From the NCBI RefSeq assembly GCF_055900595.2, contig NZ_CM148325.1: a DNA stretch of 64,000 nt, one strand, 5' to 3'. Position numbers and translations under genes: made by a program. Positions 3,901 through 21,008 of this stretch are shown piece by piece. Every line of letters starts with the position of its first letter. Within the stretch, counting starts at the first letter, position 1. The notes under the pieces are model-generated. The model saw only the letters and a list, made by a program, of their open reading frames with translations. It did not search any database and was not told the origin of the DNA.

Positions 3901-3938
3901 GGATTAATAGCATTGGAGGCTGATGACAAACGCAAAAC

Positions 3939-4037
3939 TGCCTGATGCGCTACGCTTATCAGGCCTACAAGGTTCCTGTAATATATTGAATTAGCAATAT
4001 TTTGTAGGCCGAATAAGGCGTTTACGCTGCATCTGGC
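3939..4037. repeat. BIME-like pair of REP elements
   Basis: tgcctgatgcgctacgcttatcaggcctaca (3939-3969) and gtaggccgaataaggcgtttacgctgcatctggca (4003-4037) in inverted orientation. Confidence 0.6.
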
Positions 4038-4104
4038 ATAAACAAAGTGCACTTTGTCAATAATCTGCTTTGTCGGCAGTTGTTGCTGCCGACAAATGCA
4101 GTTT

Positions 4105-4839
4105 TTAATTTTCGTGTGGAAACGTAGTAAGGTCATCAATCATTTTTTGAAGTATTGGTGAGTCCTGACCATCACCCCATTGAAGAATTTTTGCGGTAAG
4201 CTGATGACGGGCTAGTGCATTGAGTCCCATCTTTTTAAGTTTATGGGAGATTTTACCCATGACTTTAATCTGACCGAATGCAGTTGCGTAGGTAATCATA
4301 TTGCTCTGGATAGTGCTCATTTCATCGGCTAGTAATTGCGCACGAATATCCTCTTCAAGAATACTTTCCATAGCGATATATTTCATACCCCAGATAGTTT
4401 CAATTAACATTTGAGGGAAATCAGCACAATCTAGATCCGGCTCTTTACGCAGGCTATTTTCAAGAACGTTTAGAGCATCAGCACCTTCATCGCTGCCAAA
4501 AGGAGATTCTTCATCCCAGCAACACACATAAAGTGGATCAGTAAAATGGCACTGGAAGTTTGGGTGTGACGTTTTAACATGTAACCCAATTTCTTCATCA
4601 TCAAAATAGTAGCGATCCATGTAGTTAAAGTTTGGATCTTCTTGATAGCCTTTCTTCATTTTTGCGGCAATCAATTTACTGGCTTCTTTCAGACACTGTT
4701 CTTCATTATCGAACTCTTTTGTCTGGAATTTACCAATACTACCTACCTTGCCATAGTTGATGGCTAAACTATCCCCTTCGTAATCTATCCACCAAAATTT
4801 ATTCGATTTTTCATCGTTATAAATAAAGCATTTTTTCAT
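4105..4839 (-). CDS. yfeS: WGR-domain protein YfeS (function unknown)
   Basis: 244-aa ORF, N-terminal FWWIDYEGDSLAINYGKVGSIG resembles WGR domain; conserved position between cysM and yfeK. Confidence 0.85.
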   Translation of the reverse strand: MKKCFIYNDEKSNKFWWIDYEGDSLAINYGKVGSIGKFQTKEFDNEEQCLKEASKLIAAKMKKGYQEDPNFNYMDRYYFDDEEIGLHVKTSHPNFQCHFTDPLYVCCWDEESPFGSDEGADALNVLENSLRKEPDLDCADFPQMLIETIWGMKYIAMESILEEDIRAQLLADEMSTIQSNMITYATAFGQIKVMGKISHKLKKMGLNALARHQLTAKILQWGDGQDSPILQKMIDDLTTFPHEN

Positions 4840-4871
4840 GTTACCTCCTGTAAATGCCTTGCCAAAGCGGA

Positions 4872-5246
4872 TTAATTCCCTTCCGCAGGCACCGTTTTAT
4901 CCGTCTGCGCAATTAACGCATGTAAAAAAGGTTGCGCGTTTTCATCGCTCTTACCGGGCATCTTCACGATATACGGCTTCCCGGTAATCGATGATGACGA
5001 AGCAACCTTATCAATAAATTGCTCAGCAGTATCAATGCGATTACGGGTATTGCCCAGCTTCAGACGCAAATGGGAAACCGCTTCATCGCAGGTATGTTCA
5101 TCGCCGTTGCGCACAAATATCAAATCCTTTTTCTGTGCTAATCCCTCCAGCATGGCGTTGATGCGGGCTTCTTCGTGGGCGGTTAACTTCGCGTAAGCGG
5201 GGAGTGTCATTAGCAGCGTAATGACCAGACAAATGATTTTCTTCAT
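4872..5246 (-). CDS. yfeK: Secreted small protein YfeK (signal peptide, function unknown)
   Basis: 124 aa with N-terminal signal peptide [19 protein letters not shown]; conserved position. Confidence 0.8.
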
Positions 5247-5271
5247 TGAATTACCTTATCCTTGTTTTGTG

Positions 5272-5337
<66 letters not shown>

Positions 5338-5350
5338 GAGAAAAAATTAA

Positions 5351-6794: not shown

Positions 6795-8522
6795 TTAGCA
6801 GATTGTTTTTTCTTCAATGAACTTGTTAACCAGCGTCATTAACTCGTCCGTTGTCGGTTGAGCAAGAGCCTGCTCTGCTAACACCTTCGCATCTTCGAAG
6901 TTCGTGTTACGGATAATCTTCTTAATGCGCGGGATAGAAATGGCGCTCATAGAGAATTCGTCCAGACCCATCCCCAGCAACAGAAGTGTAGCACGTTCAT
7001 CGCCAGCAAGCTCACCACACATGCCAGTCCATTTGCCTTCAGCATGAGAAGCATCAATAACTTGCTTGATCAAGTTCAGCACGGACGGTGACATTGGCTG
7101 GTAAAGGTGTGAAATCATATCATTACCACGGTCAACTGCCAGAGTGTACTGCGTTAAATCATTGGTGCCGATACTAAAGAAATCAACTTCTTTGGCTAAA
7201 TGACGTGCAATTGTTGCGGCCGCTGGTGTTTCCACCATTACGCCGATTTCAATTGACTCGTCAAACGCTTTACCTTCGTCGCGCAGTTCCTGTTTGTAGA
7301 TTTCGATCTCTTTGCGCAGTGCACGCACTTCTTCAACAGAGATGATCATCGGGAACATGATGCGCAATTTACCGAAAGCAGAGGCACGCAGGATAGCGCG
7401 GAGCTGATCGCGCAGGATCTCTTTACGATCCATCGCGATACGGATAGCGCGCCAGCCGAGGAACGGGTTCTCTTCTTTCGGGAAGTTCATGTATGGCAGC
7501 TCTTTGTCGCCGCCGATGTCCATGGTACGAACGATAACCGCTTGTGAGCCACACGCTTCAGCTACTGCTTTGTAAGCAGCAAACTGTTCTTCTTCAGTGG
7601 GCAGCGCGTCGCGGTCCATGAACAGGAACTCAGTACGATACAGACCAACGCCTTCAGCGCCGTTACGCTCTGCACCTTCAACGTCACGAACCGTACCGAT
7701 GTTAGCGCACACTTCTACCTGGTGACCGTCCAGCGTAATAGCTGGCAGATCTTTCAGTTTAGCAAGCTCTGCTTTTTCAGAAGCCACTTGCTCCTGAACA
7801 GCGCGCATTTTATCAATAACTTCGTTGGTTGGATTGACGTAAACCTGATTATTTACGGCATCCAGAATCAGATAGTCGTCATTTTTCACCTGAGAGGTGA
7901 CGCTACCGGTACCCACGATAGCAGGCAGTTCCAGAGAACGCGCCATGATAGAGGTGTGGGAAGTACGGCCACCCGCGTCGGTGATGAAACCCAGCACCTT
8001 CTTCAGGTTCAGCTGTGCGGTTTCGGACGGCGTCAGATCAGCGGCAACCAGAATGACTTCATCCTGAATGGCGCTCAGGTCGATAATCTTCAGGCCCAGG
8101 ATGTTGCGCAGCAGGCGCTTACCGATATCACGTACGTCAGCCGCACGCTCTTTCAGGTATTCATCATCCAGCTCTTCCAGGGCAGAAGCCTGACCTTCGA
8201 TAACTTCATGAGCAGCTGCGTCAGCTGTCATGTGCTTATCTTTAATCAGGGCTATGATTTCCTGCTCCAGCTCCTCATCTTCGAGTAGCATAATATGCCC
8301 TTCAAAGATGGCTTCTTTTTCTTCACCGAACGTTTCACCAGCTTTCGTTTTGATCGTTTCCAGCTGGGCTGATGCCTTGGCACGACCGCTCAGAAAACGT
8401 TCAACTTCCTGATCAACCTGGTCGGCAGAAATTTTTTTCCGGTCAATGACAATTTCGTCTTCTTTCAGAAGCAGAGCTTTACCGAAAGCGATACCCGGGG
8501 ATGCTAAAATGCCTGAAATCAT
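6795..8522 (-). CDS. ptsI: PTS Enzyme I (phosphoenolpyruvate-protein phosphotransferase)
   Basis: 575 aa, recognisable EI sequence; ptsH-ptsI-crr operon. Confidence 0.97.
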
Positions 8523-8566
8523 AACCCTACCTTACTTGTGACTGATTTTTAAAAGAACCCGGGAAA

Positions 8567-8824
8567 TTACTCGAGTTCCGCCATCAGTTTAACCAGATGT
8601 TCAACCGCTTTCTGTTCGTCTTCGCCTTCTGCGGAGATAGTCACAACGGTACCTTGAGTCAGGCCCAGAGTCTGCAGTTTAAACAGGCTTTTCGCGCTGG
8701 CGCTTTTGCCGTTGGAAGTCACAGTAATTTCAGAAGTGAAGCCCTTAGCTTCTTTTACAAACTGGGCAGCAGGGCGGGTGTGCAGACCGTTCGGAGCGGT
8801 AATGGTAACTTCTTGCTGGAACAT
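8567..8824 (-). CDS. ptsH: Phosphocarrier protein HPr
   Basis: 85 aa [23 protein letters not shown]... with active-site His15. Confidence 0.97.
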
Positions 8825-9156
8825 TGTATTTCCCCAACTTATAGGTTTAGTGTTGTGGAACTAAAGTCTAGCCTGGCGGTTCGACTTTAGCCTGTATTGT
8901 TAGCGCCAGTTTTTAACAGACGCGACGCACGAAGAGCGCAATACAGTCCTTTGCTGGCGGGTGTTGACCGCTGACGTTTCGTACGTCATTAAACATTATG
9001 CCGCTAAAGGAAGAATTGAACCAAATCATAAAATCGATTCAGCTATGGCTTTTCCTGTAACGATTAATTTCGCGCATCAAAATAATTAGTCTGGTTAAAT
9101 ACCAGTTCCGACAGGCTGAATCAATGCCAGGAGGGGCGAAAGTTTGAAGCAGGCCA

Positions 9157-9185
9157 CAAAAAAGCACCTGAAAAGGTGCTTTTTT
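9157..9185 (-). terminator. Candidate rho-independent terminator of cysK
   Basis: Stem gcacc/ggtgc flanked by A6/T6 immediately 3' of cysK stop on the minus strand. Confidence 0.5.
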
Positions 9186-9207
9186 ACGCATTTTTAACAA
9201 GCTGGCA

Positions 9208-10179
9208 TTACTGTTGCAATTCTTTCTCAGTGAAGAGATCGGCAAACAATGCGGTGCTTAAATAACGCTCACCCGATGACGGTAGAATAACCACAATATT
9301 CTTGTTGGTAAAGCTTTCATCTTCTTGTAGTTTCAACGCTGCAGCAACAGCCGCTCCAGAAGAGATACCTGCAAGAATACCTTCCTCTTCCATCAGACGA
9401 CGCGCGGTAGAAATAGCTTCTTCATTGGTGATGCCAATGACTTTATCGACCAGCTTGAGATCAAGATTAGCCGGGATAAAACCAGCGCCAATCCCCTGAA
9501 TTTTATGCGGGCCAGGTTTAATCTCTTCACCTGCCAGCGCCTGGGCGATAACCGGAGAATCGGTTGGCTCCACGGCGACAGAGATGAGATCAGTCTTGCC
9601 TTTAGTGCCTTTAATGTAGCGGCTGACGCCGGTCAGCGTACCGCCAGTCCCAACACCAGCAATAAATACATCAACCTGACCGTCGGTATCTTCCCAGATC
9701 TCCGGACCGGTGGTTTTTTCGTGAATTTCAGGGTTTGCCGGATTGCTGAATTGTTGCAGCAGTAGGTATTTCTCTGGATTGCTGGCGACAATTTCTTCTG
9801 CTTTTTGGATTGCGCCTTTCATGCCTTTAGCACCTTCGGTCAGCACCAGGTTTGCACCTAACGCTTTCAGCAGCTTGCGGCGTTCAATACTCATGGTTTC
9901 TGGCATGGTCAGGGTGAGTTTGTAACCGCGAGCGGCAGCCACATAGGCCAGTGCAATCCCGGTATTACCGCTGGTTGGTTCAACCAGTTCAACGCCTGGT
10001 TTCAGCACGCCGCGCTTTTCGGCATCCCAAATCATATTGGCACCGATACGGCACTTAACGCTGAAGCTGGGGTTACGAGATTCCACCTTCGCCAGAATGC
10101 GTCCGTTACCGATGCGATTCAGGCGAACCAGCGGTGTGTGACCGATAGTCAGCGAGTTATCTTCAAAAATCTTACTCAT
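9208..10179 (-). CDS. cysK: Cysteine synthase A (O-acetylserine sulfhydrylase A)
   Basis: 323 aa, PLP-lysine motif SVKCRIG; recognised sequence. Confidence 0.97.
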
Positions 10180-10363
10180 GGCCTGTCCTTAACTGTATGA
10201 AATTGGGATACAACAGGTAGCATACCCGCTCAGAGAATATGCGGAAGTAAGGATTTAGCATATCTATATACAGAAGGGAAATAATGACATGCAAGATGGA
10301 ATAAGGGGTGGCATAAGCCACCCCTGTTTCACACAAACGGTTTACAAAATAACCGGTAGATTG

Positions 10364-11125
10364 TTACCGCCACATCGCGTGTTTATCGCGATAGCAATCG
10401 ACCCACATCGCCGTCGCGCCACAAACGGCAACGGGCATAATGAACAGATTAAGCAGCGGGATCATCGTAAACAGGCTGGTTAAAGCACCAAACTGCATAT
10501 TGGTGATTTTGCGTGTGCGCAGGGCGGTGCGCATCTCTTTAAACGGCACTTTGTGGTTATCGAAGGGGTAATCGCAATACTGGATGGCTAACATCCAGGC
10601 GCTAAACAGGAACCACAGTACCGGTGCGACGGTTTGCCCAATGCCAGGGATGAAGTAAAGAATTAGCAATACAATTGCGCGCGGCAGATACCAGGCAAAT
10701 TTTTGCCATTCGCGTTTCATGATTCGCGGCACATCTTTCATGATACCGAAAATTCCGGTATCTGGCGGTGTAGCGCCAGTCAGTCTTGCTTCCAGTTGTT
10801 CAGCCAATAAACCGTTGAACGGAGCAGCAATCCAGTTAGCAATCGTTGAGAAGAAATAGCCAAACACTAACAGCACAGAGATGACAGCCAGGGGCCACAA
10901 CAGATAGCTCAGCCATTGTAACCAGTCCGGAACATAACTCATGAGAGTCGGGATCCAGACATCGAGTTGCGTAAAGAGCCACCAGAATGCGCCCCCCATC
11001 AACAAAATATTGACCAACAGCGGTAAAATAACAAAACGCCGAATCCCAGGTTGCGAGACGAGCTTCCAGCCTTGCGCAAAATAGTAAAAACCGCTGCGTG
11101 GGGCAGATGTGAATGATGAAACCAT
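10364..11125 (-). CDS. cysZ: Sulfate transporter CysZ
   Basis: 253-aa multi-pass membrane protein; conserved position between cysK and zipA. Confidence 0.93.
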
Positions 11126-11354
11126 AATCAGGATGAGCTCCTTTTGACCAATCCCAGGAAAATTCTGCGTATTTTACCGGGTAATTGCGCAATGGACAGT
11201 TAGGATATGTTCGAAAAAACAGCAAAAAGCACGATTTCATCTATCTTTGTGCTGTGAAAGTTAATAGTGCACTTGCACTTGAGGTAATCGGCAAATACTC
11301 TTAGTGAGTAAATGTTTGCCGTGGTGGCAAGGTGTTAGAACAACAGAGAATATA

Positions 11355-12353
11355 ATGATGCAGGATTTGCGTCTGATATTAATCATTGTTGGCGCGATCG
11401 CCATAATCGCTTTACTGGTACATGGTTTCTGGACCAGCCGTAAAGAACGATCTTCTATGTTCCGCGATCGGCCATTAAAACGAATGAAGTCAAAACGTGA
11501 CGACGATTCTTATGACGAGGATGTCGAAGATGATGAGGGCGTTGGTGAGGTTCGTGTTCACCGCGTGAATCATGCCCCGGCTAACGCCCAGGAGCATGAG
11601 GCTGCTCGTCCGTCGCCGCAACACCAGTACCAACCGCCTTATGCGTCTGCGCAGCCGCGTCAACCGGTCCAGCAGCCGCCTGAAGCGCAGGTACCGCCGC
11701 AACATGCTCCGCGTCCAACGCAGCCGGTGCAGCAACCCGTGCAGCAGCCTGCCTATCAGCCTCAGCCTGAACAGCCGTTGCAGCAGCCAGTTTCGCCACA
11801 GGTCGCGTCAGCGCCGCAGCCAGTGCATTCAGCACCGCAACCGGCACAACAGGCTTTCCAGCCTGCAGAACCTGTAGCGGCACCACAGCCTGAGCCTGTA
11901 GCGGAACCGGCTCCAGTTATGGATAAACCGAAGCGCAAAGAAGCGGTGATTATCATGAACGTCGCGGCGCATCATGGTAGCGAGTTAAACGGTGAACTGC
12001 TTCTTAACAGCATTCAACAAGCGGGCTTTATTTTTGGCGATATGAACATTTACCATCGTCATCTTAGCCCGGATGGCAGCGGCCCGGCGTTATTCAGCCT
12101 GGCGAATATGGTGAAACCGGGAACCTTCGATCCTGAAATGAAGGATTTCACTACTCCGGGTGTCACTATCTTTATGCAGGTACCGTCTTACGGTGACGAG
12201 CTGCAGAACTTTAAGCTGATGCTGCAATCTGCGCAGCATATTGCCGATGAAGTGGGCGGTGTAGTGCTTGACGATCAGCGCCGTATGATGACTCCGCAGA
12301 AATTGCGCGAGTACCAGGACATCATCCGCGAAGTCAAAGACGCCAACGCCTGA
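11355..12353 (+). CDS. zipA: Cell division protein ZipA (start trimmed to MMQDLRL; track ORF over-extended)
   Basis: N-terminal TM anchor, charged region, long P/Q-rich linker, C-terminal FtsZ-binding domain; recognised sequence. Confidence 0.93.
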
Positions 12354-12383
12354 TACACTTAAGGCAAATTAACTTATCTTCGA

Positions 12384-12406
12384 ACCCCCGCTTGTCGGGG
12401 GTTTTT
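12384..12406 (+). terminator. Candidate hairpin/terminator between zipA and ligA
   Basis: Stem acccccg/cggggg followed by TTTTT. Confidence 0.4.
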
Positions 12407-12414
12407 AGCATTGA

Positions 12415-14439
<2,025 letters not shown>

Positions 14440-14440
14440 G

Positions 14441-14659
14441 ATGGAAAAAGAGCAGCTGATTGAAATAGCCAATACGATAATGCCGTTTGGCAAATACAAA
14501 GGGCGTCGCTTAATCGACCTGCCGGAGGAGTATCTTCTGTGGTTTGCCCGCAAAGATGAGTTCCCGGCAGGGAAGCTCGGTGAGCTAATGCAAATCACGC
14601 TGCTGATTAAAACCGAGGGGCTGACGCAACTGGTCCAGCCCCTGAAACGCCCACTTTAA
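14441..14659 (+). CDS. ypeB: Small protein YpeB (DUF3820-like)
   Basis: 72-aa ORF MEKEQLIEIANTIMPFGKYKGRRLIDLPEEYLLWF..., starts 2 nt after ligA stop; track ORF 14348-14659 is over-extended. Confidence 0.8.
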   Translation: MEKEQLIEIANTIMPFGKYKGRRLIDLPEEYLLWFARKDEFPAGKLGELMQITLLIKTEGLTQLVQPLKRPL

Positions 14660-15654
14660 GCTTTATCGGCGCTGCTTTCCTGCTGCGCCTGTAACTGTTC
14701 GGTCTGGCGTTTGTATCGACGCGCCAGCACCGCACAGACCATCAATTGGATCTGATGGAAAATCATCAGAGGCAGCACCATCATACCGATCACCGATGTG
14801 GGGAACAGAATGTTTGCCATCGGGATGCCATTTGCCAGACTCTTTTTCGAACCACAAAAGACGATAGTAATTTCATCTGCCTTATTGAAGCCCAGTCGGC
14901 GTGCCATAAAGACGTTAACTACAATCACGATAGCCAGAAGAACGCAGCTGACCACCACGATAAACAGCAATGATCCCCAGCCAACTTTATGCCAGATGCC
15001 GTTAACGACGGCTTCGCTGAATGCCGTATAAACCACCAACAGAATGGACGTCTGGTCAGTTTTCGCAATCCATTTTTTATTACGCGACACCCAGTTGCCA
15101 ATCCAAGGGCGGGAAAGATGCCCCAACACAAATGGCAGCAACAGTTGCAGCATAATTTTACCGACCTGCTCAAGGCTGCCCCCTGCACCGTGAACATTCA
15201 TCACCAGACCAACCAGCAATGGTGAAAGGAAAATCCCCAGTAGGCTGGATGCCGACGCAGAACAAACCGCCGCCGCGACGTTACCGCCCGCCATTGACGT
15301 GAAGGCGATTGCAGACTGCACGGTAGCAGGAAGAATGCACAAGTAGAGAAAACCGGAATAGAGCATCGGGTCGACATTTACCGGTTTCCACCAGGCAAAC
15401 AGCACGCCCAAAATTGGGAACAGCACGAAGGTGCTACACATCACCCATAAATGCAGTCGCCAATGACCACCGCCTGCAATAATGGCCTCTCGCGATAACT
15501 TCGCACCGTGCATAAAGAACAGCAGGGCAATAGCTGCGGTAGTCAGATTTTCAAAGAAGGGAACGAAATCGCCCCTGGCCGGAAAGAAAGAGGCCAGCAA
15601 CACCACCGTGATCAGGGTTAAGGTGAAAGGATCGAGGATACGAAAAAGTTTCAT
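14656..15654 (-). CDS. yfeH: Putative Na+/bile-acid symporter family transporter YfeH
   Basis: 332-aa polytopic membrane protein; conserved position. Confidence 0.9.
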   Translation of the reverse strand: MKLFRILDPFTLTLITVVLLASFFPARGDFVPFFENLTTAAIALLFFMHGAKLSREAIIAGGGHWRLHLWVMCSTFVLFPILGVLFAWWKPVNVDPMLYSGFLYLCILPATVQSAIAFTSMAGGNVAAAVCSASASSLLGIFLSPLLVGLVMNVHGAGGSLEQVGKIMLQLLLPFVLGHLSRPWIGNWVSRNKKWIAKTDQTSILLVVYTAFSEAVVNGIWHKVGWGSLLFIVVVSCVLLAIVIVVNVFMARRLGFNKADEITIVFCGSKKSLANGIPMANILFPTSVIGMMVLPLMIFHQIQLMVCAVLARRYKRQTEQLQAQQESSADKA

Positions 15655-20123: not shown

Positions 20124-21008
20124 ATGGAACGCGTATATAGAACAGATCTTAAGTTGCTCCGTTATTTTCTTGCCGTAGCGGAAGAGTTGCATTTTGGTCG
20201 CGCAGCAGCGCGTTTAAATATGTCTCAGCCTCCGCTCAGTATTCATATTAAAGAGCTGGAAAATCAACTCGGCACGCAGCTTTTTATTCGCCATTCGCGC
20301 AGCGTCGTACTGACACACGCGGGCAAAATCTTGATGGAAGAATCGCGTCGATTGCTGGTGAATGCAAATAATATATTGGCTCGGGTTGAACAAATAGGTC
20401 GGGGAGAAGCAGGGCGGATTGAACTCGGGGTTGTGGGAACGGCAATGTGGGGACGGATGCGCCCGGTTATGCGGCGATTCCTTAGAGAAAATCCTAACGT
20501 TGAAGTTCTGTTTCGCGAAAAGATGCCCGCGATGCAAATGGCCTTGCTGGAACGCCGCGAACTTGATGCCGGGATCTGGCGAATGGCGACAGAACCACCG
20601 ACTGGTTTTACCAGCTTACGGTTGCATGAATCGGCGTTTCTGGTGGCGATGCCTGAAGAGCATCATCTCTCATCATTTTCCACCGTCCCGCTGGAAGCGC
20701 TACGTGACGAGTATTTCGTTACAATGCCGCCCGTGTACACTGACTGGGATTTTTTGCAGCGAGTTTGCCAGCAGGTGGGATTTTCACCGGTTGTTATTCG
20801 CGAAGTTAATGAACCGCAAACGGTACTCGCCATGGTCAGTATGGGTATTGGTATCACATTGATAGCGGACAGCTACGCGCAGATGAACTGGCCCGGTGTC
20901 ATATTCCGTCCGCTCAAAGAACGCATCCCGGCAGACTTATATATTGTTTATGAAACGCAGCAGGTGACGCCCGCGCTGGTTAAACTGCTGGCGGCGTTGG
21001 CGCAGTAG
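20124..21008 (+). CDS. xapR: LysR-family activator XapR (start trimmed to MERVYR)
   Basis: LysR HTH (LKLLRYFLAVAEELHFGRAAARLNMSQPPLSIHIKELE); 294 aa from trimmed start. Confidence 0.9.
   Translation: MERVYRTDLKLLRYFLAVAEELHFGRAAARLNMSQPPLSIHIKELENQLGTQLFIRHSRSVVLTHAGKILMEESRRLLVNANNILARVEQIGRGEAGRIELGVVGTAMWGRMRPVMRRFLRENPNVEVLFREKMPAMQMALLERRELDAGIWRMATEPPTGFTSLRLHESAFLVAMPEEHHLSSFSTVPLEALRDEYFVTMPPVYTDWDFLQRVCQQVGFSPVVIREVNEPQTVLAMVSMGIGITLIADSYAQMNWPGVIFRPLKERIPADLYIVYETQQVTPALVKLLAALAQ

Follow-up and report, generated by a model that had tools for sequence, protein, structure and literature searches.

yfeS of Escherichia coli is a mobile accessory WGR-domain gene placed behind the σE-regulated core gene yfeK, and may encode an immunity-like protein

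The stretch of DNA analysed here, referred to as the window (64,000 nucleotides; RefSeq assembly GCF_055900595.2, contig NZ_CM148325.1), is Escherichia coli DNA with the gene order cysU-cysW-cysA-cysM on the plus strand, yfeS and yfeK on the minus strand, pdxK on the plus strand, crr-ptsI-ptsH on the minus strand, and cysK. An earlier note, made from the sequence alone, had placed an uncharacterized yfeS and yfeK pair between cysM and pdxK, and both open reading frames are present at that site (Table 1). In RefSeq, identical DNA is annotated with yfeS as a ‘WGR domain-containing protein’ and yfeK as a ‘YfeK family protein’.

Table 1. Positions of features at the yfeS–yfeK locus, numbered from the first letter of the window
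Feature	Position	Strand	Description and basis
yfeS cassette, 968 bp plus one repeat	3901..4876		8-bp direct repeat GGATTAAT at 3901-3908 and 4869-4876; junction alignment
Two REP elements (BIME-like pair)	3940..4040		Between cysM and the hairpin; REP core motifs
Hairpin, 12-bp stem TTTGTCGGCAG-TTGT-TGCTGCCGACAAA	4069..4096		Just downstream of the yfeS stop codon; T-run on the plus-strand side
yfeS coding sequence	4105..4839	-	Open reading frame, 244 aa; cytoplasmic product of pI 4.8 with a net charge of about -15
YfeS C-terminal domain, residues 72-244	4108..4626	-	Loop-rich segment followed by a helical bundle; acidic, pI 4.6
WGR domain of YfeS, residues 1-71	4627..4839	-	Motif is Y29-G30-K31 in place of W-G-R
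Shine-Dalgarno sequence AGGAGG	4844..4849	-	Strong; 4 nt upstream of the yfeS ATG, within the 32-bp yfeK-yfeS spacer
yfeK coding sequence	4872..5246	-	DUF5329 product of 124 aa, about 105 aa when mature
YfeK signal peptide, residues 1-19	5190..5246	-	n/h/c regions; cleavage after AYA; low pLDDT over residues 1-20
σE-type promoter yfeKp	5280..5307	-	-35 GAAACTT (5307..5301), 16-nt spacer, -10 TCAAA (5284..5280)

The product of yfeK belongs to the DUF5329 family (PF17263, 108.6 bits against a cut-off of 27; NCBIfam PRK10318.1-3, 279 bits against 171). Its description as a secreted protein in the earlier note is borne out by the presence of a signal peptide, which is also listed for K-12 YfeK (PMC10278209). 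A pattern for σE promoters (GGAACTT-like -35, 16-nt spacer, TCAAA -10) found a single match in the 64-kb window, GAAACTT-N16-TCAAA upstream of yfeK, where 0.22 matches were expected by chance, and this motif is identical in K-12, Sakai and CFT073, making four E. coli lineages with the window. By its sequence, the motif fits the published σE promoter yfeKp. Previous studies have described yfeKS as an operon of the σE regulon that rises together with rpoE during the killing associated with loss of restriction-modification (PMC2685091), and have reported increased expression of yfeK and yfeS under autotransporter secretion stress (PMC6850105). In a passage citing Gogol 2011, PMC4618604 gives yfeK as a direct target of MicA. 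YfeK thus resembles the small envelope proteins of the σE regulon under MicA/RybB feed-forward control in its σE motif, signal peptide, stress induction and repression by MicA, but differs in having a DUF5329 fold for which structure comparison returned no informative neighbour.

The earlier note had stated that neither gene has an assigned function. This holds in so far as a biochemical function has been demonstrated for neither gene; the statement overlooks a literature that includes the σE operon, the MicA target and two phenotypes. Over-expression of yfeK halts growth without lysis, while over-expression of yfeS has no effect (PMC2685091), and deletion of yfeS lowers the MIC of boric acid from 100 to 45-50 mM with partial complementation (PMC11502571). 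In a 2025 annotation effort yfeS was still listed with a regulator but without a function (PMC12356324).

The distribution of the two genes was determined by searching 5426 complete E. coli genomes with positions 4105-5350 as the query. yfeK was detected in 5425 of these genomes, whereas the full stretch with yfeS was present in 1371 (25%), the remaining genomes matching the yfeK part only. The claim that both genes are conserved is therefore wrong for yfeS. In Sakai (O157:H7) and CFT073, cysM and yfeK adjoin directly, their stop codons separated by 2 bp, and about 75% of E. coli genomes lack yfeS together with the rest of one block. Within this block, the yfeS cassette, are the final codons of yfeK, the 32-bp spacer carrying AGGAGG, the yfeS gene, the hairpin and the two REP elements. 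The spacer is conserved in Pseudocitrobacter, and 16 bp including the left arm of the hairpin are absent from K-12-type alleles. The C-terminus of YfeK reads VPAEGN before the stop codon in the window allele and VPAQ in strains without yfeS; formation of the empty allele by clean excision between the two GGATTAAT repeats was rejected on these grounds, as the empty site encodes the VPAQ and not the VPAEGN ending. Two further observations are explained by the REP elements. The median number of matching places per E. coli genome was 19 when the REP stretch was included in the query and 1 when it was left out, and Rfam gave sub-threshold matches at 3961-4074 to the sRNA families ES036 and naRNA4, which are REP-derived. 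Base composition also sets the cassette apart, with a GC content of 0.381 (GC3 of 0.347) for yfeS as compared to 0.47-0.60 for the neighbouring genes and a dip to 0.37-0.43 across the cassette.

Synonymous divergence differs between yfeS and its flanks. Between the window and K-12, dS was 0.07 for yfeS as compared to 0.26 for yfeK, 0.33 for cysM and 0.34 for pdxK, so that yfeS lies 4-6 times below its flanks. It also lies below them between E. coli and Pseudocitrobacter, where dS was 0.19-0.25 for yfeS, 1.3-1.5 for yfeK and 0.45-0.50 for cysM, and where DNA identity was 94-95% for yfeS and 79% for yfeK. The slot downstream of yfeK is variable in its contents: in Pseudocitrobacter it holds a 244-aa YfeS that is 94% identical, in Klebsiella a SnoaL_3/DUF4440 gene and in Salmonella an unrelated 116-aa ORF. 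The dN/dS ratio of yfeS (0.11-0.27) is above that of the flanking genes, and in combination with the low dS indicates a functional gene that moved between lineages later than its flanks diverged. yfeS is a mobile, low-GC, single-gene cassette under purifying selection, while yfeK is a core, vertically inherited and stress-regulated gene for a small periplasmic DUF5329 protein. The locus is one σE-driven transcript of two genes of different origin. The designation of yfeS and yfeK as a pair in the earlier note is hence sound for the operon, as judged by position, and fails for inheritance, because the gene following yfeK changes between genera and because no DUF5329 gene was found beside yfeS homologues outside the Enterobacteriaceae in the loci examined.

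The earlier note had also proposed that YfeS carries a WGR-like N-terminus, quoting what are residues 15-43 of the protein, and had recommended structure prediction and a remote-homology search in case the resemblance was spurious. Both analyses were performed and the resemblance is genuine. Residues 9-71 score 64.5 bits (E=9.4e-18) with the Pfam WGR family PF05406, for which the cut-off is 22, and an AlphaFold2 model derived from 44 homologues (pLDDT 95.5, pTM 0.92) contains a WGR fold, consisting of a β-sheet and one long helix, that is superposable on solved WGR domains. Among solved structures, the only sequence relative of YfeS is the WGR head found in Bacteroides fragilis Q64V53 (2RA8; E=7.8e-14), which the family profile matches with E=3.8e-23 and which is 44% identical over the N-terminal 70 residues of YfeS. 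This profile also reaches the WGR domain of PARP3 (E=1.5e-3), aligning ‘YGKxG’ with the PARP3 ‘WGRVG’. A literal Trp-Gly-Arg is absent from YfeS, and the family-wide form of the motif is [YFW]-G-K; this substitution is conservative and common to 2RA8, and so leaves the HMM and fold tests unaffected. The WGR module alone has a pI of 6.2 in this protein and a median pI of 7.8 across the family. Matches to YfeS in PHROGs and BFVD were limited to the WGR domain (residues 1-70 for PHROGs), and neither YfeS nor YfeK matched the anti-phage defence models of PADLOC-DB v2 at E≤1.

The C-terminal domain of YfeS lies outside the families searched. Pfam gave chance-level matches only for this domain and its relatives (e.g. 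one member against DUF4259, E=0.15), NCBIfam and PADLOC gave nothing further, and fold comparison against the PDB detected neither a structural neighbour nor a known enzyme fold. The loop-rich segment (residues 72-116) is predicted by AlphaFold2 with high confidence. D80, T90-S91-H92, Y104, P113-F114-G115, D117, G119, D121, K192 and G195 are invariant in 44 of 44 homologues, and C107 is nearly so. A profile of the C-terminal domain alone detected 691 cluster representatives (50% identity; E≤1e-3) among 1.84 billion. The commonest architecture combines WGR with this domain in a protein of ~240 aa, for which the source names are only ‘WGR domain-containing’ or ‘YfeS’; other arrangements are a stand-alone form of ~170 aa, forms with duplicated WGRs, WGR-domain-DUF4253 and DUF4240-WGR-domain-DUF4253. 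The papers found on DUF4253 deal with knot topology only. In the structural model, YfeS is a rigid two-module cytoplasmic protein, in which a canonical WGR head is packed on an acidic helical body with an invariant polar patch.

Among other WGR proteins, PARP1, PARP2 and PARP3 share the WGR domain (PF05406) with YfeS, but YfeS has YGK for WGR, is without the ADP-ribosyltransferase and helical regulatory domains of these proteins, and has its WGR joined instead to an acidic helical domain lacking known relatives. Members of the 2RA8/LIC_11051 family resemble YfeS in combining an N-terminal WGR head with a protein-binding-type body; however, their body is an LRR solenoid and that of YfeS a compact helical domain. 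YfeS is not a member of the LIC_11051 family (NCBIfam NF047464), as its score of 69.9 bits falls short of the cut-off of 1000 and comes from residues 1-67 only. In E. coli, MolR/YehI carry WGR and DUF4132. Proteins of the MolR/YehI and WGR-YwqG/TYPP (DUF1963) types are like YfeS in the fusion of WGR to an uncharacterized, presumed protein-interaction module, but YfeS has neither a DUF4132 nor a DUF1963 domain; DUF1963 genes are found as neighbours of YfeS homologues. Fusions between WGR and the YwqG/DUF1963 (TYPP) domain have been described (PMC4275035).

Relatives of YfeS are widespread. A genome scan confirmed 172 of them in many phyla, and no neighbour was conserved beyond the genus. Full-length homologues with 45-57% identity occur in Paenibacillus, Lysinibacillus, Sporosarcina, Exiguobacterium and Clostridia, in Bacteroides, Dysgonomonas, Porphyromonas and Flavobacterium, in Neisseria, Eikenella, Pseudomonas and Fusobacterium, and in spirochaetes and one Methanomassiliicoccaceae MAG. 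We called ORFs in 76 loci and clustered the 1079 products by all-against-all BLAST. Apart from within-genus synteny in Exiguobacterium and Neisseria, no neighbour family recurred in this set, and YfeS therefore has no obligate partner. Homologues have repeatedly inserted into housekeeping operons: that of Dysgonomonas lies within the trp operon between an MFS gene and trpC, and in Neisseria sicca the gatCAB genes are arranged as gatC-[YfeS]-[DUF4240]-[DUF6714]-[149 aa]-gatA-[SMI1_KNR4]-[147 aa]-gatB.

Same-strand arrays of small genes around YfeS homologues include recognized immunity families. Homologues lie near SMI1_KNR4 and DUF1963 genes in Paenibacillus, near a SUKH/Imm51 fusion gene in Lysinibacillus, and near genes for Tdi1 and ankyrin (Ank) proteins in Bacteroides xylanisolvens, and the de-duplicated neighbours also include Imm43, Imm68, DUF1963 and DUF5713. 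A SUKH-like gene was located ≤8 kb away in 11 of the 76 loci (a raw count with a locally iterated HMM). DUF4253, which is fused to YfeS-type proteins elsewhere, was encoded directly adjacent in 3 of the 76. In at least five lineages, orphan immunity families thus lie close to YfeS homologues on the chromosome or contig. On the other side, about 65 of the 76 loci have no recognized immunity gene nearby, and among the 25 Pfam families listed immunity-type families were similarly numerous near (≤2 kb) and far (≥4.5 kb) from the homologue. There is no toxin gene beside yfeS in E. coli, where it is flanked by yfeK and cysM, and no toxin family recurs in the 76 loci.

yfeS shares several features with orphan immunity genes (SUKH/SMI1_KNR4, Imm43, Imm51, Imm68 and Tdi1), which likewise have small, acidic, cytoplasmic products, are patchily distributed with presence or absence within a species, and occur in same-strand arrays of small genes or slipped into housekeeping operons. 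The folds of these proteins differ from that of YfeS, there is no sequence relationship, and conservation of YfeS is unusually high for an immunity protein. Our preferred reading, held with low confidence and at somewhat less than even probability, is that YfeS is an immunity-like binding protein, mobile and carried along by the σE operon, its role and mechanism both being inferred. An orphan immunity-like pool is the best fit because of the population behaviour, solitary mobility, acidity, non-toxicity and genomic company of YfeS. On insertion between cysM and the stop codon of yfeK, the cassette would have brought its own strong ribosome-binding site, hairpin and REPs, and it would now borrow the σE promoter that, according to the literature, drives yfeK under damping by the σE-dependent sRNA MicA. 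YfeS may be one of the single-gene orphan immunity-like proteins that circulate by horizontal transfer, and could protect the cell by binding an incoming effector or, possibly, by enzymatically undoing the work of this effector. Because of what WGR domains recognize in PARPs, such an effector would most plausibly act on nucleic acids or use ADP-ribose chemistry. Its position behind yfeK would give YfeS an expression pattern inducible by envelope stress.

Several lines of evidence agree with this immunity-like role: the accessory low-GC cassette, the low dS of yfeS and its patchy distribution over many phyla; the presence of SUKH, Imm43, Imm51, Imm68, Tdi1 and DUF1963 neighbours in several lineages; the occurrence of DUF4253 both fused and adjacent to the YfeS domain; the insertions into the housekeeping operons of Dysgonomonas and Neisseria; and the acidic, cytoplasmic nature of a protein that is harmless when over-expressed (PMC2685091). 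Against it stand the absence of an adjoining toxin gene in E. coli and of a recurrent toxin family in the 76 loci, the roughly 65 of these loci that lack a recognized immunity gene, and the likeness of near and far neighbours. There were no PADLOC matches, and the accessible part of a survey of polymorphic toxins (PMC3482391) makes no mention of WGR, YfeS, DUF4240, DUF4253, DUF1963 or DUF4259. The sole reported phenotype of a yfeS deletion is boric-acid sensitivity rather than a defect in interbacterial conflict. Moreover, 45-57% identity with about 20 invariant polar, glycine or aromatic residues makes a ligand or catalytic site likelier than an arms-race surface.

These strongly invariant polar residues keep two other explanations alive. 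YfeS may be a stress protein that senses nucleic-acid ends or ADP-ribose and helps cells to survive the damage accompanying envelope stress, with the WGR head recognizing a 5'-phosphorylated break or a PAR-like ligand, as in PARP1-3, and the helical body transmitting or capping the signal. We consider this rather unlikely. The canonical fold and consensus, with aromatic Y29 and basic K31 kept at the W and R positions, the description of WGR as a predicted nucleic-acid-binding domain (PMC4275035) and the boric-acid sensitivity of the deletion mutant (PMC11502571) are in accord with such a sensor, but YfeS is strongly acidic (about -15), its WGR module alone is only near neutral, and it is without a catalytic or DNA-repair domain. 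Similarly, yfeKS transcripts increase during DNA damage and death induced by restriction enzymes, but this induction was ascribed to σE and not to SOS (PMC2685091), and absence from 75% of E. coli genomes is unlike a sensor of the housekeeping type. An unlikely explanation in our estimation is that YfeS acts catalytically through its C-terminal domain, which would be a new enzyme or small-ligand-binding domain, for example one reversing or degrading a modification or metabolite, with the WGR domain targeting the substrate. D80, T90-S91-H92, Y104, D117, D121 and K192 are invariant across Firmicutes, Bacteroidota, Proteobacteria and Fusobacteria, the loop-rich residues 72-116 are confidently predicted, the gene is under purifying selection and a stand-alone form of ~170 aa exists; however, no known enzyme fold or Pfam family is resembled and no metabolic neighbours are conserved.

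It is improbable that yfeS is a neutral hitch-hiker lacking a current function in E. coli. Dispensability in most strains, truncated copies in E. coli and Shigella, and a dN/dS above that of the flanking genes would be expected of such a gene, but a ratio of 0.11-0.27 is one of purifying selection, a full-length ORF persists in 1371 genomes and a second genus with its strong ribosome-binding site retained, and a complementable deletion phenotype has been reported (PMC11502571). A functional two-gene module, for example of a growth-arresting periplasmic YfeK and a cytoplasmic modulator YfeS, is largely refuted and in our view very improbable. The common operon, the 32-bp spacer, co-induction, the same pairing in Pseudocitrobacter and the arrest of growth by over-expression of yfeK but not of yfeS (PMC2685091) might suggest a module of this type. 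Nevertheless, about 4050 E. coli genomes carry an intact yfeK but no yfeS, unrelated genes follow yfeK in Klebsiella and Salmonella, and DUF5329 neighbours were not found outside the Enterobacteriaceae. The two products also differ in compartment, one having a signal peptide and the other none, and the dS values indicate different histories.

An extended form of the immunity-like interpretation is more speculative, and we regard it as unlikely in its entirety. According to this proposal, WGR and the YfeS C-terminal domain would constitute an undescribed, very widely transferred family of single-gene antidotes, in which the WGR head recognizes a product or target, of nucleic-acid or ADP-ribose type, of an incoming interbacterial effector, the invariant polar site of the helical body binds or reverses it, and DUF4253 and DUF4240 act as partners; in E. 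coli, the antidote would have become wired to the σE alarm and be induced when the envelope is breached.

Here we have characterized a locus whose two genes, WGR annotation, signal peptide, operon structure and control by σE and MicA are already in databases and papers, so that the finding as given in the earlier note was already known. New in this analysis are the recognition of yfeS as an accessory and mobile gene, the outlining of a C-terminal domain family that lacks a model and is linked to DUF4253 and DUF4240, and the immunity-array context of YfeS homologues; all three are useful leads, although unproven. YfeK is still a conserved periplasmic protein under σE/MicA control, and its fold is uninformative. 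yfeS should be regarded neither as part of the conserved E. coli core nor as a functional partner of yfeK, and its status bears on comparisons of the σE regulon and on screens based on K-12. The 170-residue C-terminal domain of YfeS represents a sizeable family without a Pfam model or a solved relative, which recurs with DUF4253 and DUF4240. Finally, the genomic company of YfeS points to an orphan-immunity gene pool; if the immunity-like interpretation is true, this would be the first non-PARP role for a bacterial WGR domain and would tie envelope-stress signalling to interbacterial defence.

The yfeK neighbourhood is a hot spot of small-gene turnover in the Enterobacteriaceae. At the Salmonella and Klebsiella loci (L010 and L012), genes for a GntR-aminotransferase and a GATase separate pdxK from yfeK, and yfeK has a SnoaL_3/DUF4440 gene on its downstream side in Klebsiella but on its upstream side in Pseudocitrobacter (L011). 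A 116-aa ORF near yfeK at the Salmonella locus had no match in Pfam.

Alleles of yfeK itself differ at both ends. At the start position, the yfeS-carrying alleles of the window and K-12 have ATG, and the yfeS-less alleles of Sakai and CFT073 (L001 and L002) have GTG. Clean excision of the yfeS cassette between the flanking GGATTAAT repeats was considered as the origin of the empty site seen in Sakai and CFT073, and was ruled out because YfeK there ends in VPAQ* and not in VPAEGN*. Both 3' alleles, encoding VPAEGN (124 aa) and VPAQ (122 aa), are also found in Pseudocitrobacter. The Sakai yfeK additionally carries a 1-bp deletion in an A-run close to its 3' end, and is annotated as a shorter product of 110 aa. 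Besides the σE-type promoter of yfeK, the window holds a second σE-like motif (GAACTT-N16-TCTAA), which is no more than chance would supply (0.43 expected).

Downstream of yfeS, comparison of the window with the K-12-like locus (L003) showed that K-12-type alleles are missing 16 bp, among them a hairpin's left arm, and that this loss generates GCAACAACTGTTAAA. The same sequence is the marbox reported under the MarA ChIP peak 'yfeS><cysM' of ETEC H10407 (PMC5684230). The window retains the full hairpin and therefore does not have the GCAACAACTGTTAAA marbox.

The left end of the window, spanning cysU/W/A, cysM, yfeS, yfeK and pdxK, is only 90-97% identical to K-12, with identity rising to ~99% from there onward through crr-ptsI. 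Within this tract yfeS is the least divergent gene, and a cysM at least 99% identical was present in just 15 of 5427 E. coli records, with cysM at 90-95% identity in 5408. The tract has the look of a segment imported by recombination, its left end falling before the window begins.

Coordinates of the features discussed (in the window unless another locus is named)
Feature	Position	Strand
Divergent tract	1 to ~6400	
GGATTAAT direct repeats	3901-3908, 4869-4876	
Hairpin region with 16 bp missing from K-12-type alleles	4053-4096	
yfeK start codon	5244-5246	
Second σE-like motif	20482-20508	-
Neisseria sicca gatC-gatA-gatB region (L053)	7569-14795	

Shortened YfeS products occur in E. coli and Shigella (P0005, P0008 and P0026), which suggests that YfeS decay is ongoing in some lineages of these bacteria. 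One form is 184 aa long and is without the WGR domain; the other two, an N-terminal fragment and a form from Shigella flexneri, are each 155 aa long. In Neisseria sicca, the essential gatC-gatA-gatB operon is broken up by six small accessory genes, encoding a YfeS homologue, DUF4240, DUF6714 and SMI1_KNR4 proteins and two products without a Pfam match. This layout of operon and accessory genes is kept in several Neisseria loci, and the N. sicca locus is a striking example of a housekeeping operon harbouring accessory genes.
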